A stretch of 64,000 nucleotides of DNA from Myxococcota bacterium (GTDB taxonomy: Bacteria; Myxococcota_A; UBA9160; SMWR01), in the NCBI GenBank assembly GCA_036560145.1, contig DATBRV010000009.1, positions 16,189 to 80,188 on the forward strand, written 5' to 3'. Under the pieces are notes generated by a model. It saw only the letters and a program-made list of their open reading frames with translations, ran no database searches and was not told the origin of the DNA. Numbering within the stretch: position 1 is the stretch's first letter; each line of letters starts with the position of its first letter. Positions 5,659 through 17,140 of the stretch are shown here, in pieces. The position numbers and the translations under genes were made by a program.

Positions 5659-6357
5659 ATGGCGCCTCCCGCCGCCGCCGCGCCCCGTTCCCGCGCCCCC
5701 GCGCGCGCCCGTCGCACCCGCCCGGGCGGCGCCGAGCGCCGCCAGCAGATCCTGCGGGCGGCCTCGGAGTGCTTCGGCACCCGGGGCTTCCACGGGACGA
5801 CCACCCGCGACGTCGCCGCCGCCGTCGGCATCACCGAGGCGGCGCTCTATCGCTACTTCGACGGCAAGGAGGCGATCTACACCGCCATCCTGGATGCGCG
5901 CATGTCGGCGCCCGATCCGGTCGACGCGGTGGAGGCGTTCGCCGAGCGCGGCGACGACCACGCGGTCTTCAGCGGGCTGCTTGAGGCGCTGTTCGCGCGC
6001 GTGAACGCCGATCCGTCCTTCATCCGCCTGCTCTTCTACTCGGCGCTGGAAGGCCACCAGCTGGCGACCCCCTTCCGGGAGAAGCGGATCCGGCGCCTGC
6101 GCGAGTTCCTGACCGGCTACATCGCGCGCCGCGTCCGGGAGGGCGCGTTCCGGCCGATCGACCCCGCCCTCGGCGCGCGTTTCTTCATCGGCCTCTTCGT
6201 CGATTACGCGCTCGTGCGTCAGGTGTTCGGCGAGCCCGATCTCTACCCGCAGCCTGCGGAGGAGGTCGCGCGCTCCCACGTCGCGATCTTCCTGGACGGA
6301 ATGCGGGCGGCGCCGGCGGCGTCCCGGCGCAAGCCGGCGAGGCGCAAGCGTGGCTGA
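5659..6357 (+). CDS. TetR/AcrR family transcriptional regulator
   Basis: Contains the HTH region FHGTTTRDVAAAVGITEAALYRYFDGKEAIY. It is the first gene of the efflux operon. Confidence 0.9.
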   Translation: MAPPAAAAPRSRAPARARRTRPGGAERRQQILRAASECFGTRGFHGTTTRDVAAAVGITEAALYRYFDGKEAIYTAILDARMSAPDPVDAVEAFAERGDDHAVFSGLLEALFARVNADPSFIRLLFYSALEGHQLATPFREKRIRRLREFLTGYIARRVREGAFRPIDPALGARFFIGLFVDYALVRQVFGEPDLYPQPAEEVARSHVAIFLDGMRAAPAASRRKPARRKRG

Positions 6358-13050: not shown

Positions 13051-13866
13051 CTACCCGTGCTCCAATAGAAACGGCTGGACGGCGGCGAGGAACGCCTCCG
13101 GCTGCTCCAGGTGCAGATTGTGGCCGGCCGCCTCGATCAGCGAGGTCCGCGCCCCCGGGATCTCGGCCGCGAAGGCGGCGGCTCCCTCGGCCGAGAGGAG
13201 CGGGCTCTCGGCCCCGCGCAGGATCAGCGTCGGGCAGCGGATCCCGCCGAGCGCGACGCGCTCGCTGGGGGGCAGCCCGAACCAGCGCGGATCGAACTTG
13301 AAGCCGAAGCGGCCGTCGGGGTCCCGGGCGACGGAGTGCGCGGCGATGCTCTCGCGCAGCGATTCGCTCGCGTGCGGCGCCGGCGGCAGGAAGCGGTAGC
13401 GCGCGATGGCGTCCTCCCGCGTGCGATACGTCCGACGCGCGGCGAGGGCGAGCCGCATCGCGCGGCGTTCCCGCGACGGCGCGCCGCGCACGACCTCGAT
13501 CGCGACGAGGGCGCGCACCTGGTTCTTCCGAGCCGCGTGATCCAGCGCGATGTGCCCGCCCATCGAGTGCCCCATCAGGGCGGGCTCGCGCGCGCCCAGG
13601 TGCTGGAGCAGCGCCTCGAGGTCGCGGGCGAAGGCGCCGACCTCCAGCGAGGCGGGATGGTCCGAGTCGCCATGGCCGCGAAAATCGAGCGCCACCACGT
13701 GGAAGCGATTGGCGAAGGCGGGCGCCAGGTGGTCCCACCAGTGCGCGTTCGCCCCGCCCCCGTGCAGCAGCACCAGCGGACGTCGCGACGCGTCGCCGCG
13801 GTGAAGCGCGTGAAGGAAGACGCCGGCCAGCGACGGCGTCGTGAAGCGTTCCGAGCGCGCGGTCAC
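13051..13866 (-). CDS. Alpha/beta hydrolase
   Basis: Contains LVLLHGGGANAHWW, RGHGDSD and the nucleophile elbow GHSMGG. Confidence 0.8.
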   Translation of the reverse strand: MTARSERFTTPSLAGVFLHALHRGDASRRPLVLLHGGGANAHWWDHLAPAFANRFHVVALDFRGHGDSDHPASLEVGAFARDLEALLQHLGAREPALMGHSMGGHIALDHAARKNQVRALVAIEVVRGAPSRERRAMRLALAARRTYRTREDAIARYRFLPPAPHASESLRESIAAHSVARDPDGRFGFKFDPRWFGLPPSERVALGGIRCPTLILRGAESPLLSAEGAAAFAAEIPGARTSLIEAAGHNLHLEQPEAFLAAVQPFLLEHG

Positions 13867-13914: not shown

Positions 13915-13938
13915 ATTTCGGCCTCCCCGGGCCGAAAT
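13915..13938. promoter_or_regulatory. Perfect 9-bp inverted repeat (ATTTCGGCC-6 nt-GGCCGAAAT) in a divergent promoter region
   Basis: Read directly from the sequence. It lies between the hydrolase start (13866) and the histone-like gene. Confidence 0.4.
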
Positions 13939-13951
13939 GGCGCAGAATCCT

Positions 13952-13981
13952 TTGCATCCCCCTCGGAGGTGCGCCTATCAT
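13952..13981 (+). promoter_or_regulatory. Candidate sigma70-type promoter for the histone-fold gene
   Basis: TTGCAT (13952-13957), an 18-nt spacer, then TATCAT (13976-13981). Such hexamers are rare in this GC-rich context. Confidence 0.3.
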
Positions 13982-14084
13982 CCGCCCCGTCCGAACCATG
14001 GCGTATTCCGCGACATGGGGGTTTCCGCCGCCGTCGGCCGGTGTCTCCGGACGATGCGGCGTGTAGGGAGAGGAGAAACGGATC

Positions 14085-14291
14085 ATGGCAGCGAAGAAGT
14101 CGGCTCCGAAGAAGAAGGCGACCGGGGATCTCATCATCTCGAAGTCCCGCACCAAGGCCGCCGCCAAGAAGTGCAACGTGGGCAGCGAGTTCTACGGTGC
14201 GCTCGACCAGGCCGTACGCGGTCTGATCGCCGCGGCCGAGGGCCGCGCCGTCGGGAACAAGCGAAAGACGCTGAAGGCGGTCGATCTCTAG
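14085..14291 (+). CDS. Small histone-fold DNA-binding protein (DUF1931 / bacterial histone HBb-like) with a Lys-rich N-terminal tail
   Basis: 68 aa: MAAKKSAPKKKATGDLIISKSRTKAAAKKCNVGSEFYGALDQAVRGLIAAAEGRAVGNKRKTLKAVDL. The pattern matches remembered DUF1931/Bd0055-type sequences. A strong SD (GGAGAGGAGAA) precedes it and a terminator follows. Confidence 0.7.
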   Translation: MAAKKSAPKKKATGDLIISKSRTKAAAKKCNVGSEFYGALDQAVRGLIAAAEGRAVGNKRKTLKAVDL

Positions 14292-14313: not shown

Positions 14314-14362
14314 TTCGCCCGTAGCGGGCGAACGGGCCCACCGGCGAGCCGCCGGTGGGCCC
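14314..14362. terminator. Two adjacent GC hairpins between convergent genes (bidirectional terminator candidate)
   Basis: TTCGCCC-GTAGC-GGGCGAA (14314-14332) and GGGCCCACCGGC-GAGC-GCCGGTGGGCCC (14334-14362), followed by CGTCGTTTCCGTT. Confidence 0.6.
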
Positions 14363-14378
14363 CGTCGTTTCCGTTCCG

Positions 14379-16007
14379 TCACGATTCCAGCAGCGACAGC
14401 CGGAGGTGCGAGGGGCGCTCGCGATCGTGGAACACGGTCTGGCGCGCCGGCGCGATCTCGCTCTCCGCGGCCGCGCCAGGCTCCACTTCCGTGTGTGAGG
14501 GGCGGTCCCAGCGCGGGAAGGCCGACGACGAGACCCTGAGGCGCAGGCGGCCACCGGTCTCGAGGCGCGCGCAGGCGGCCCCGAGATCGAGCTCGAGCCG
14601 GCGCGTCTCGCCGGGCGCGCCGCGGCTGCGCAGTACGCCGTCGCACAGCGTCTGCTGCTTCCCGTCGGGGGCGAGCGCGACCAGCGTTGCCGTGAAGTCG
14701 GTGACGGCGGCGCTCGACTCCGCGAACAGCACCGCCCCCACCGGGCCGCCGATCAGGAGGGGCTCCGGAAGCGGCTCCGTCGTGTAGCAGAGCACGTCGT
14801 GGCGGCATTCCGTCGCAGGGTCGTCTGCGAGCGCGGGATCGCGCGGGTCGTAGCTGTAGCGATCGGCGGGCTCCTCGCCGGGCGGCGCTTCACGCAGCAG
14901 GGCGCCGTCGCCGGTTCGCCCGTTGGCGCGGCCGCCGCCGCGCAGGTGCAGCGCCAGCGAGCGGGCGTTCGGAAGCGGCCACGCGGATGCTTCGCGCCAG
15001 ACGGAAGCGCCGCGCATGAACACGCGCACGGGCGCGCGCGCCGCCGGCTCGCCGCGCAGACGGCGCGCCAGGAAGTCGAGGGCGGCGCGCAGGCTCTCGG
15101 CACCCGCCCGGCTGCGGGTGCGCCGCGCCTCGCGGCGGGGCGGCTGGCCTCCGGGCCAGGGTCCGATCACGAGCTCGGGCTCCGGTGCGCCGCGCCTTCG
15201 CGCCGCCTCGCGCAGCGCCGGGAGATCCGCGAGCTGCGCGGCGAGCGCCGGGTGACGCCAACCGGCGATCAGCAGCGTCGGCGGCGGCGCCTCGGGGAGC
15301 GCGGGGCTCCGCGCCTCCCAGTACGCGTCACGGGCCGGATGCTCGATCCATTCGCGAAACCAATCGACACGCTTCAGCGTCACCCGGTCGGCTTCCCGCA
15401 GCGGGCGATGGGAGAGCCCGCGTTCGAGGTCGAGCCGGCCCGGGTCCTCGGCCTCGCGCTCGCCGACCCCGACGCCCCAGCGCAGCGCCAGCTCGAGCGC
15501 GAGCGCTCCGCCCGGGCGCAGCCAGGCGAACGGATCGCGCGCGGCGAAGGCGGCCACCAGGGCGGCCACGGGCCGGGGGCTGCGGGAGAGCGCGGCCCAG
15601 GCCGCGAAGCCGGAGTAGCCCCAGCCGAGGAGGCCGAGGCGCCCGTCGAACCATTCCTGGCTCGCGATCCAGGCGATCGCGTCGCCGCCGTCCGCCGCCT
15701 CGTTCAGGAAGGGCGCGAAGCGGCCCTCCGAGGCGTGCCGGCCCCGGCACTCCTGGAGCACGACGGCAAAACCGGACTCGGCGATCAGGCGGCCGAGCGA
15801 CGCCGCGGCGTGTCCCGGCCGGTGCGACGGCTCGGAGGTGCGCATCAGCACCGCCGGCCAGGGCCGCGCGCCGTCCTGCGGGAGCAGGACCTGGGTCGCG
15901 AGCCGGACGCCGTCCGTGAGCGCCACCCATTCCAGCCGGCGCCGGACGGCGCAGCGCCGGGGGGGAAGCGAGAGCCAGCGCCGGGTCAGCGCGGCGCCGA
16001 GGTTCAC
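14379..16007 (-). CDS. CocE/NonD family hydrolase (X-Pro dipeptidyl-peptidase S15-like)
   Basis: Contains DGVRLATQVLLP, QECRGRHASEG and GWGYSGF. The C-terminal beta-sandwich region ends with HTEVEP...FHD. Confidence 0.8.
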   Translation of the reverse strand: MNLGAALTRRWLSLPPRRCAVRRRLEWVALTDGVRLATQVLLPQDGARPWPAVLMRTSEPSHRPGHAAASLGRLIAESGFAVVLQECRGRHASEGRFAPFLNEAADGGDAIAWIASQEWFDGRLGLLGWGYSGFAAWAALSRSPRPVAALVAAFAARDPFAWLRPGGALALELALRWGVGVGEREAEDPGRLDLERGLSHRPLREADRVTLKRVDWFREWIEHPARDAYWEARSPALPEAPPPTLLIAGWRHPALAAQLADLPALREAARRRGAPEPELVIGPWPGGQPPRREARRTRSRAGAESLRAALDFLARRLRGEPAARAPVRVFMRGASVWREASAWPLPNARSLALHLRGGGRANGRTGDGALLREAPPGEEPADRYSYDPRDPALADDPATECRHDVLCYTTEPLPEPLLIGGPVGAVLFAESSAAVTDFTATLVALAPDGKQQTLCDGVLRSRGAPGETRRLELDLGAACARLETGGRLRLRVSSSAFPRWDRPSHTEVEPGAAAESEIAPARQTVFHDRERPSHLRLSLLES

Positions 16008-17140
16008 GGCTTGGCCGCTTCGGGATCGAGATTCGCGCCGATGCGGAACACGCGATCGAGCGGCGCACGGCGCAGGATCTCGATCGGATCCAGGCCGTGC
16101 TGGTCCGCCAGGAACTCGAGCCCGGCGCTCGCGAAGCGCGCCGCCTTCGCGATCGCGCGCGGCGTCGACTCGGAGTCCGAGAGCGGCAGCCGGTCGGCGA
16201 CCGCAATTTTATTGGCGAGCGCGACCAGCGCGTGGAATGCCGAGCGCCGCTCGTCTTCCTCGAGCGCGGCGATCGTGCGGAAGAGCAGTCCGCTCTCGTC
16301 CGCGTTGGCCGGCAGCCGCGGCATCGCGACCGGGAGCTGCCAGCGCGACGCCGGCGCGAGTGGAGCGGCGTCCGGCGGCAGCGCGGCGCGCTGATCGGGC
16401 GGGAGATAGCGATAGATCGCCATCGCCTCCTCCCAGGGCGGGAAGCCCAGATCCTCGAGCCTGCCGGCGCGCCAGCGCAGGGCCCACTCCTCGGTCTCCG
16501 GCTCGAGCTCCCAGATCACCGACTGGAGCAGACGGAAGTAGCTCCAGTAGTCGCGTTCGAAGAGCGTGCGCAGGAGCGAGACGATCGACGCGGCGTCGTC
16601 GCCTTCCCCCAGCGCCCGGAAGAAGAACTGACCGTCGAGCGTGTCGGCTCCGATGGGGGGCTCCCAGAAATCGTCGTTCGCGCGCAGGAAGACCTCCACG
16701 CGGCCCTTCATGAACAGCGTGAGCAGCTCGGGATCGAGCGCCTGCAACCCGCGCAGCAGCGGCTCCTCGCCGGCCTCCACCAGCGCGCCGATCCAGGCGT
16801 CGAGGCTGCGGCGGTCCGGAAGGGTGCCTTCCCAGCCGTCGAGGTCGACGCAGGCGACCAGCTGCTCCGGCGTGGCGTGCTCGAGCAGCCAGGCGGCGCT
16901 CGCGAGCCCGACCGCCTTGACGGTGAAGCACAGCTCGGCCTCGGGCAGCAGCGGGATCACGCGCTCGGGCTCGGGCAGCAGCTCGAGCAGGGCGGCGCGG
17001 CGCGCGACGGGCGCCTCGCACACGAGCTCCACCTGGACGTCGATCGGCTGCTCGGCGAGCGCCCGCTGCGCGGCGTCCCGGTCCTTTCGCGCGAGGTCGA
17101 GGATCCGCCGCGCGGCGTGGGGGGCCGGCCGTTCGAGCAT
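16004..17140 (-). CDS. Conserved hypothetical protein (DUF6178-like)
   Basis: The 950-aa ORF was trimmed to the ATG at 17138-17140 (MLERPAPHAARRILDL...). The helical-repeat region ATPEQLVACVDLDGWEG resembles my recollection of DUF6178. Confidence 0.6.
   Translation of the reverse strand: MLERPAPHAARRILDLARKDRDAAQRALAEQPIDVQVELVCEAPVARRAALLELLPEPERVIPLLPEAELCFTVKAVGLASAAWLLEHATPEQLVACVDLDGWEGTLPDRRSLDAWIGALVEAGEEPLLRGLQALDPELLTLFMKGRVEVFLRANDDFWEPPIGADTLDGQFFFRALGEGDDAASIVSLLRTLFERDYWSYFRLLQSVIWELEPETEEWALRWRAGRLEDLGFPPWEEAMAIYRYLPPDQRAALPPDAAPLAPASRWQLPVAMPRLPANADESGLLFRTIAALEEDERRSAFHALVALANKIAVADRLPLSDSESTPRAIAKAARFASAGLEFLADQHGLDPIEILRRAPLDRVFRIGANLDPEAAKP

Follow-up and report, generated by a model that had tools for sequence, protein, structure and literature searches.

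Histones have been recognised in bacteria only recently, and few of them have been studied: HBb (Bd0055) of Bdellovibrio bacteriovorus (PDB 8CMP, 8FVX and 9EZZ), HLp of Leptospira perolatii (PDB 9QT0, 9QT1 and 9QT2; Hu et al. 2025, PMC12701072) and the HLp homolog of Leptospira interrogans, a face-to-face (FtF) histone that is reported to be highly abundant and essential. Histones with a truncated third helix (α3), which spans only 3–4 residues and is followed almost at once after the clamp aspartate by the chain end, comprise the FtF histones and the 'bacterial dimers' of the HBb type; the former assemble into ring-shaped tetramers and carry a logo-conserved R48 and N52, whereas the latter have neither residue (Schwab et al. 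2024, PMC11390915). Bacterial FtF histones have been published from Myxococcota, mostly from uncultured organisms. Here we analyse a histone gene whose clade agrees with that distribution. It lies at positions 14085–14291 on the plus strand of a 64,000-nt stretch of contig DATBRV010000009.1 from a Myxococcota bacterium, and this whole 64-kb stretch is called the window. The gene encodes a 68-residue protein with a single histone fold, probably an FtF histone, with a basic N-terminal tail.

The residues that matter in such proteins have been mapped in two homologs. In HLp, the dimers of a tetramer contact each other through R49, S52, N53 and R55, R55 and D62 form a clamp, and the residues that contribute most of the DNA-binding energy or persistent hydrogen bonds to DNA are S14, K15, K17, K21, K54 and R59 (Hu et al. 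2025, PMC12701072). In HTkC, a histone of the archaeon Thermococcus kodakarensis (PDB 9F2C; Schwab et al. 2024, PMC11390915), R45 is salt-bridged to the C-terminal carboxylate of the opposing dimer, and an R45A substitution produces an HBb-like dimer (bioRxiv 10.64898/2025.12.06.692711). The higher-order compaction by HTkC is reported to differ from that by the bacterial HLp (bioRxiv 10.64898/2025.12.06.692711).

Descriptions of this family and of its tails date from 2024–2025; the window gene is an uncharacterised member and not a new kind of protein, and the current understanding of bacterial chromatin is unchanged. Beyond the literature, we add the tail composition and length range of one clade, the layout of its promoter, palindrome and leader, its synteny with a DUF6178 gene, and a long-tailed relative that can be cultured. 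This large, uncultured and mostly Myxococcota clade encodes a highly conserved histone that we assign to the FtF kind. The tail is present in every copy checked, and most copies have a near-consensus promoter, a strong Shine-Dalgarno (SD) sequence and a terminator, as expected of a main nucleoid protein.

Reading frame and histone fold

The open reading frame (ORF) has an ATG start and 68 codons for 68 amino acids (aa). The ORF sequence quoted for positions 14085–14291 by the first-pass annotation, an earlier model-made reading of the same DNA, matches exactly. The protein has two parts:

14085–14126, plus strand: N-terminal tail, codons 1–14 (MAAKKSAPKKKATG), rich in lysine and alanine, with a net charge of +5; coil in the AlphaFold2 (AF2) model and conserved in composition
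14127–14291, plus strand: histone-fold domain, codons 15–68 and the stop codon; identified by conservation, profile matches, AF2, Foldseek and published residue roles

The histone region is 72% G+C and is crowded with overlapping chance ORFs in all six frames. Because of this composition and these many chance frames, we tested the histone frame for coding. Across 79 species copies and the window copy, the differences per site at codon positions 1, 2 and 3 are 0.136, 0.111 and 0.388, and the codons of the 79 species copies differ from those of the window copy by 1224 synonymous and 638 non-synonymous changes. The notion that the frame is itself a chance product of GC-rich DNA could draw on the many spurious six-frame ORFs nearby and on empty Pfam and NCBIfam scans, but it has to accommodate 2140 homologous clusters in a large protein database, relatives in 418 species-representative genomes, a variation at third codon positions three times that at positions 1 and 2, a conserved SD sequence, promoter and terminator, and significant profile and fold matches. 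The conservation data already refute it and we give it practically no weight; the histone gene is real. The histone family is small, since a search of 1.84 billion cluster representatives yielded only 329 clusters at E ≤ 1e-3.

An in-frame TAG at 14064–14066, upstream of the histone ATG, makes a longer N-terminus impossible, and the close homologs listed with 84–138 aa therefore owe their length to miscalled upstream starts. In these database entries (P0001–P0004, P0006, P0010 and P0121–P0133), the gene callers picked upstream starts, for example MGVSAAVGRC..., and the recurrent 'MGV' peptide is the translation of a conserved GACATGGGGG leader motif. The ATG at 14015, which corresponds to the upstream start of the miscalled entries, is out of frame in the window.

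We searched for relatives of known structure with the single protein and with two profiles. Using hmmscan, the 68-aa protein has no match even at E ≤ 10 in Pfam-A, including DUF1931 and the histone families, or in NCBIfam, and a phmmer search of all PDB sequences yields a single marginal match, HTkC (9F2C), at E = 0.01. A close-clade profile, built from 54 close homologs and searched against the PDB, matches HTkC at E = 9.2e-6 and HLp (9QT0) at 0.043, while HBb is absent at E ≤ 10 from the matches of this profile and of the single protein. A diverse family alignment of 59 sequences, reaching down to 34% identity, ranks the solved structures in the order HTkC (4.2e-17), HLp (2.2e-13) and HBb (5.4e-11 and 2.1e-10), with weaker matches to HmvA (2.8e-5) and to HPhA, HMfA/B and NF-YB (about 0.05–0.3). 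Weak Pfam matches appear among the same 59 members: 27 touch DUF1931 (best 4.2e-5), 26 touch CBFD_NFYB_HMF and 9 touch Histone. The protein's own negative Pfam scan reflects the narrow reach of these models. Some homologs are labelled 'histone H3/H4' by JGI and some 'DUF1931 domain-containing protein [Myxococcota bacterium]' by NCBI.

The predicted structure has the same fold. An AF2 run on a shallow alignment (at least 76% identity) gave a predicted local distance difference test score (pLDDT) of 62.9 and drew loop 2 as a helix; it was superseded by a run on the diverse alignment, whose mean pLDDT is 73.6, with 76–87 in the core. This model has coil at residues 1–19, α1 at 20–26, a long α2 at 34–57 and a one-turn α3 at 65–67. 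In a Foldseek search against the PDB, chains of HTkC, HLp and HBb make up the top eight matches and nine of the top ten. The best fit is to HLp, with a template modelling (TM) score of 0.81–0.82 and root-mean-square deviations (rmsd) of 1.8–2.0 Å; eukaryotic histones and NF-Y come next, mostly with TM below 0.5. From the family profiles and the AF2 and Foldseek results, the single histone fold is established. A verdict of 'not a histone' drawn from the empty Pfam and NCBIfam scans is thereby overturned. The first-pass annotation had proposed hmmscan and a predicted structure as checks on its histone assignment: the direct scan came back empty, while the family profiles and the fold comparison returned prokaryotic histones, and the predicted structure carries the histone fold.

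Face-to-face residues, assembly and competing readings

We took the residue equivalences between the window protein and its characterised relatives from HMMER alignments of the diverse profile, in which the protein aligns with both HLp and HTkC without gaps through α2, loop 2 and α3:

Tetramer arginine: R49 in HLp, R45 in HTkC, S in HBb, R54 in the window protein
Interface asparagine: N53 in HLp, E49 in HTkC, D in HBb, N58 in the window protein
Interface and clamp arginine: R55 in HLp, R51 in HTkC, R in HBb, R60 in the window protein
Clamp aspartate: D62 in HLp, H58 in HTkC, D in HBb, D67 in the window protein

R54 and N58 thus occupy the positions of R48 and N52 in the FtF logo. No variation is seen at R54, N58, R60, T62 or D67 among the 54 sequences of the clade alignment. 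In the 59-sequence diverse alignment, R54, T62 and D67 remain invariant, and N58 and R60 are each found in at least 90% of the sequences. The protein has the RxTxxxxD motif (R60-K-T62-L-K-A-V-D67), with the R60–D67 clamp at loop 2. Its α3 is truncated to the one-turn helix at 65–67, and the chain terminates with D67, L68 and the stop codon. Like HLp, it ends one residue past the clamp aspartate, and the position of the carboxylate contacted by the arginine is therefore kept. The DNA-contacting residues of HLp (S14, K15, K17, K21, K54 and R59) correspond to S21, R22, K24, K28, K59 and K64, all of them invariant or nearly so in the clade.

HLp resembles the window protein in its single α3-truncated fold, tetramer residues, arginine–aspartate clamp and DNA-contact residues, and no other structure fits better (TM 0.82, rmsd 1.8 Å), yet the identity between the two is only 28%. 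The window protein has a loop 1 shorter by two residues, and the N-terminus differs: HLp has about seven disordered residues that are not lysine-rich, whereas the window protein has a 14-residue tail of charge +5. The lineages also differ, with HLp in Spirochaetota and the window clade mostly in Myxococcota metagenome-assembled genomes (MAGs), and no SMC or MAP adjoins the window gene. By sequence, HTkC comes closest (E = 0.01 with the single protein, 4e-17 with the profile, 33–34% identity), and it shares the truncated α3 and the tetramer arginine (R45 = R54), but it is archaeal and tailless, with a glutamate at the N58 position and a histidine in place of the clamp aspartate.

Taken together, these comparisons lead us to assign the protein to the bacterial FtF α3-truncated histones of the HLp/HTkC kind, with a probability of about 0.72; its tetramer and its wrapping of DNA are what we infer from the homologs. 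The protein probably forms a four-subunit ring wrapped by DNA. In the proposed mechanism, two chains would form a histone-fold handshake dimer, and two dimers would join through the end of α2, loop 2 and the truncated α3 into a ring-shaped homotetramer. The ring would be closed by R54, reaching the C-terminal carboxylate of the opposing dimer, and by a hydrogen-bond network of N58 and R60. About 60 bp of DNA would wrap this ring without sequence specificity, contacted by K20, S21, R22, K24 and K28 at the N-terminus of α1 and by K59, T62 and K64 from the loops. The tail, with a charge of +5 per chain and +20 per tetramer, would most likely raise the affinity for DNA and help to neutralise or compact the DNA nearby. 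The gene, expressed as a single transcription unit from a conserved σ70-type promoter and with a strong SD sequence for translation, would supply an abundant nucleoid protein of an uncultured, probably Myxococcota, bacterium.

Several points weigh against this assignment. The AF2 monomer is only moderately confident (mean pLDDT 73.6), and, with so small a histone domain, Foldseek reaches only modest E-values (best 4.6e-3). The tetramer was assigned solely from conserved residues. HTkC has a glutamate at the N58 position, and the asparagine is therefore not strictly required across FtF histones. For the role of the tail, the first six or seven residues of HLp are disordered in its crystals. The −35 hexamer of the window promoter is weaker than the clade consensus (3/6). 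A tblastn search of the 64-kb window turned up no significant match to HU, IHF, Dps or any further histone, and the HU/IHF part of this result is counted here as well.

Two other readings of the protein compete with an FtF tetramer. As an HBb/Bd0055-type dimer, it would bind and sharply bend DNA without forming a wrapping tetramer. HBb has the same α3-truncated fold, an RKT...D motif and a similar size; its structures superpose on the model at TM 0.71–0.76 and an rmsd of about 2 Å, the diverse profile matches it at 5e-11, and HTkC R45A shows that the dimer and tetramer modes are one residue apart. However, HBb has serine and aspartate in place of the tetramer arginine and asparagine, whereas R54 and N58 are retained in the window protein and invariant across the clade. 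HBb is a DNA-bending dimer without a basic tail, and it is the weaker sequence match: at E ≤ 10, the single protein and the close-clade profile match HTkC and HLp and miss HBb, the diverse profile ranks it below both FtF proteins, and in structural alignments its identity to the window protein is 22–24%, compared with 28–34% for the FtF proteins. On this evidence we reject membership in the HBb-type dimers and judge dimeric DNA bending to be unlikely.

A role outside chromatin, as a specific regulator or a protein–protein adaptor, with the tail serving for RNA binding or localisation, say, is quite unlikely in our assessment; roles of this kind have been suggested for DUF1931-type and certain other prokaryotic histone-fold proteins. 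Schwab et al. (2024, PMC11390915) warn against taking all prokaryotic histone-fold proteins for genome organisers, some homologs bear the NCBI name DUF1931, the 27 of 59 family members noted above weakly touch the DUF1931 model, the synteny with DUF6178 is conserved, and a locus-specific palindrome hints at dedicated regulation. Against these stand the single 68-aa fold without a DUF1931 match at E ≤ 10, the main DNA contacts of HLp, all kept basic or polar, and the characterised members of the subfamily (HLp, HTkC and the L. interrogans histone), which are abundant, non-specific DNA organisers; DUF6178, moreover, is absent beside the Planctomycetota homolog. DUF1931 proteins, such as Aquifex aeolicus Aq_328, have a distantly related fold, and their model PF09123 is touched by some relatives of the window protein, but they have two histone folds per chain and lack the usual DNA-binding residues, whereas the window protein has one fold and keeps these residues. 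We reject membership in DUF1931 on these grounds. The histone identity proposed by the first-pass annotation consequently stands as far as a single histone fold related to bacterial histones is concerned; its subfamily, DUF1931/HBb, gives way to HTkC and HLp as the best matches. The corrected annotation is that of a probable FtF histone of 68 aa, not DUF1931, not HBb-like and not 84–138 aa long.

The N-terminal tail and the distribution of the gene

Positively charged tails occur widely among the FtF histones of bacteria, where they have been called 'H3-like positively charged tails' (Schwab et al. 2024, PMC11390915). That publication runs counter to the view of the first-pass annotation that a basic tail is unfamiliar among bacterial histones; the statement in later papers that prokaryotic histones are generally tailless is a generalisation and does not contradict it. 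The tail itself is as that annotation described, basic (net +5) and disordered, with residues 1–10 forming a low-confidence coil in the AF2 model (pLDDT about 51). A survey of homologs, which it had recommended, finds the tail throughout the clade: a basic extension stands ahead of the fold, which opens with a conserved [DE]LIISK, in each of the 120 closest clusters and in 79/79 complete species copies.

Among these 79 copies, the tail is 8–22 residues long (median 15) and is composed of 37% lysine, 33% alanine, 14% glycine and 5% arginine. Its net charge ranges from +3 to +10 (median +6), and an acidic residue occurs in a single copy. The 54-residue core has a mean identity of 82%; 75 of the tails start with MAA[KR][KR], and 71 distinct tail sequences are present. 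The tail is thus conserved in composition and variable in sequence and length, which fits a disordered tail that acts electrostatically.

Tails vary more widely in the family beyond the clade. Many members of 55–56 aa are tailless, including acidic, haloarchaeal-looking ones. Other relatives with FtF-type residues (P0144, P0146, P0154, P0162, P0170 and P0195) have H1-like tails of about 35–47 aa, rich in lysine and arginine, and those long-tailed relatives whose source can be identified are Planctomycetota. One of them is encoded at 6001–6270 of locus L087 (CP036287.1), in the complete genome of the cultured species Engelhardtia mirabilis Pla133, by a monocistronic gene between minus-strand genes, and its tail measures about 36 aa. 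This culturable relative is a place where tail function could be tested.

Like the tails of eukaryotic and Asgard histones and of H1, the tail of the window protein is N-terminal, disordered and lysine-rich; homology to eukaryotic tails is without support. Its segment AAKKSAP (residues 2–8, 14088–14108; AARKSAP in P0004 and P0005) is identical or nearly identical to H3 residues 24–30, which include K27 and S28. We set this resemblance aside as probably due to chance, since the segment is of low complexity and occurs in only 9 of 268 family proteins, all in the closest subclade.

A more far-reaching idea, which we regard as doubtful, is that the tail is a functional and tunable module. Through it, an FtF tetramer that wraps DNA would become a particle that forms fibres or bridges, in the manner of H1 or core-histone tails, with a length set by lineage (none in archaea, 8–22 aa in the clade, about 35–47 aa in Planctomycetota), possibly with lysine modification and possibly with gene control through the palindrome described below. 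If true, bacteria would have a counterpart to the tail-dependent regulation of chromatin. We know of no modification enzymes or modification data for bacterial FtF tails, and no acetyltransferase, methyltransferase or deacetylase gene is adjacent to the histone gene.

The exact protein occurs on 11 JGI metagenome contigs with identical neighbours, and the closest genome copy (99%) is in the MAG 'uncultured delta proteobacterium MFD05942.bin.2.221'. The best 80 of the 418 species-representative genomes with a relative are all MAGs, labelled mostly Myxococcota, Myxococcales and Deltaproteobacteria. Near-identical histones (76–91%) also appear under the labels Spirochaetales, Eisenbacteria, Latescibacteria, Opitutales and Geobacter (L012, L016, L035, L042, L064, L072 and L084); these ill-fitting labels reflect either mislabelled or contaminated bins or horizontal transfer.

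Expression signals and neighbouring genes

The signals around the gene, in order of position, are:

13915–13938, no strand: palindrome ATTTCGGCC-N6-GGCCGAAAT, with perfect 9-bp arms at 13915–13923 and 13930–13938, 14 nt upstream of the −35 hexamer
13952–13981, plus strand: σ70-type promoter, with −35 TTGCAT at 13952–13957, an 18-nt spacer and −10 TATCAT at 13976–13981; identified by its orthologous position
13996–14021, plus strand: leader motif CCATGGCGTATTCCGCGACATGGGGG within a 5′ untranslated region of about 95 nt; identified by its recurrence in orthologous leaders
14067–14077, plus strand: SD sequence GGAGAGGAGAA, with a GAGGAG core at 14070–14075, 9 nt before the ATG
14314–14367, plus strand: two GC-rich hairpins past the stop codon, at 14314–14332 (8-bp stem) and 14329–14367, followed by GTCGTTTCCGTT

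Four of these elements had been named in the first-pass annotation. The strong SD sequence and the perfect 9-bp inverted repeat are present as described, and so is the terminator hairpin, whose stem had been given as 12 bp and proves to have a 13-bp perfect core within 18 nt. The TTGCAT-18-TATCAT promoter needs qualification: it lies at the conserved promoter position but is a weaker version that fails a consensus scan.

In 72 of the 79 orthologous loci, the start has a GGAG, GAGG or AGGA motif no more than 20 nt away. When the orthologous promoters are anchored on their best hexamer pair, TATGAT is found in 45 of 77 loci and TTGACT or TTGACA in 38, with a spacing of mostly 16–17 nt (up to 19) and usually a T-rich stretch upstream. 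The window hexamers sit where this TTGAC[TA]-N16/17-TATGAT promoter stands in the orthologs, but they match the consensus at only three of six positions (−35) and five of six (−10), and a simple consensus promoter scan of the window returns no sites. Promoter and SD sequence, together with the homologs, fit an abundant nucleoid protein; the hexamers of the window are weak, and therefore high expression in its own organism is uncertain.

The palindrome pattern occurs once in the 64-kb window, compared with 0.01 occurrences expected by chance. In 437 kb of related loci there are five strict matches, all of them in the zone from 60 to 260 nt upstream of the histone ATG; this zone makes up 3.6% of the sequence and contains 27 of the 73 half-site matches. 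A generic repeat, such as a repetitive extragenic palindromic (REP) element, is ruled out by its single copy in 64 kb and by strict matches that lie only upstream of the histone gene. An element of the divergent hydrolase gene is ruled out as well, since the half-site occurs about equally with (16 loci) and without (18 loci) a hydrolase neighbour. We regard the palindrome as a candidate part of the histone promoter, either an operator or a UP-like element.

In the leader, [AT]TGGGGG recurs in 30 of the 79 orthologous loci, about 10 times the rough expectation, and a longer form, CCATGSCGTA...GCGACATGGGGG, occurs in some of these leaders, seen in the window and L007, L015, L017, L020, L025, L036, L039, L045, L053, L054, L056 and L074. 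We rejected a structured or riboswitch-like leader: Rfam has no family for it, with all matches far under the gathering scores, and the leader folds no better than shuffled sequences (z = +0.71). Downstream, the arms of the main hairpin (14329–14346 and 14350–14367) pair over 18 nt at 89%, and 70 of 80 loci have a GC-rich hairpin of 8 bp or more no farther than 107 nt past the stop codon. The hairpin probably terminates transcription of both the histone gene and the convergent downstream gene.

The histone gene is flanked by an α/β-hydrolase gene at 13051–13866 and an S15/CocE-type hydrolase gene at 14379–16007. Both neighbours are on the minus strand and the histone gene is therefore monocistronic, as the first-pass annotation had stated. 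Farther downstream, at 16004–17140 on the minus strand, lies a DUF6178 gene (PF19676). In 69 of the 79 species loci, DUF6178 lies downstream of the histone gene in convergent orientation, and it is therefore not co-transcribed with it. It directly adjoins the histone gene, with a gap of less than 400 nt, in 45 loci, and in 16 loci an S15-type hydrolase gene lies between the two, as in the window. Among themselves, the DUF6178 proteins share only about 55% identity. The gene is not found beside the Planctomycetota homolog or in seven divergent MAGs, and we consequently do not propose DUF6178 as a functional partner and keep the association as synteny only.

Some relatives of about 117–130 aa (P0174, P0176, P0189, P0196, P0198, P0213, P0214, P0227, P0238, P0259 and P0267) contain two tandem FtF-like folds, each of which ends with N-x-R-x-T...D. 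Judging from this repeated motif, they would be single-chain pseudodimers related to the FtF family.

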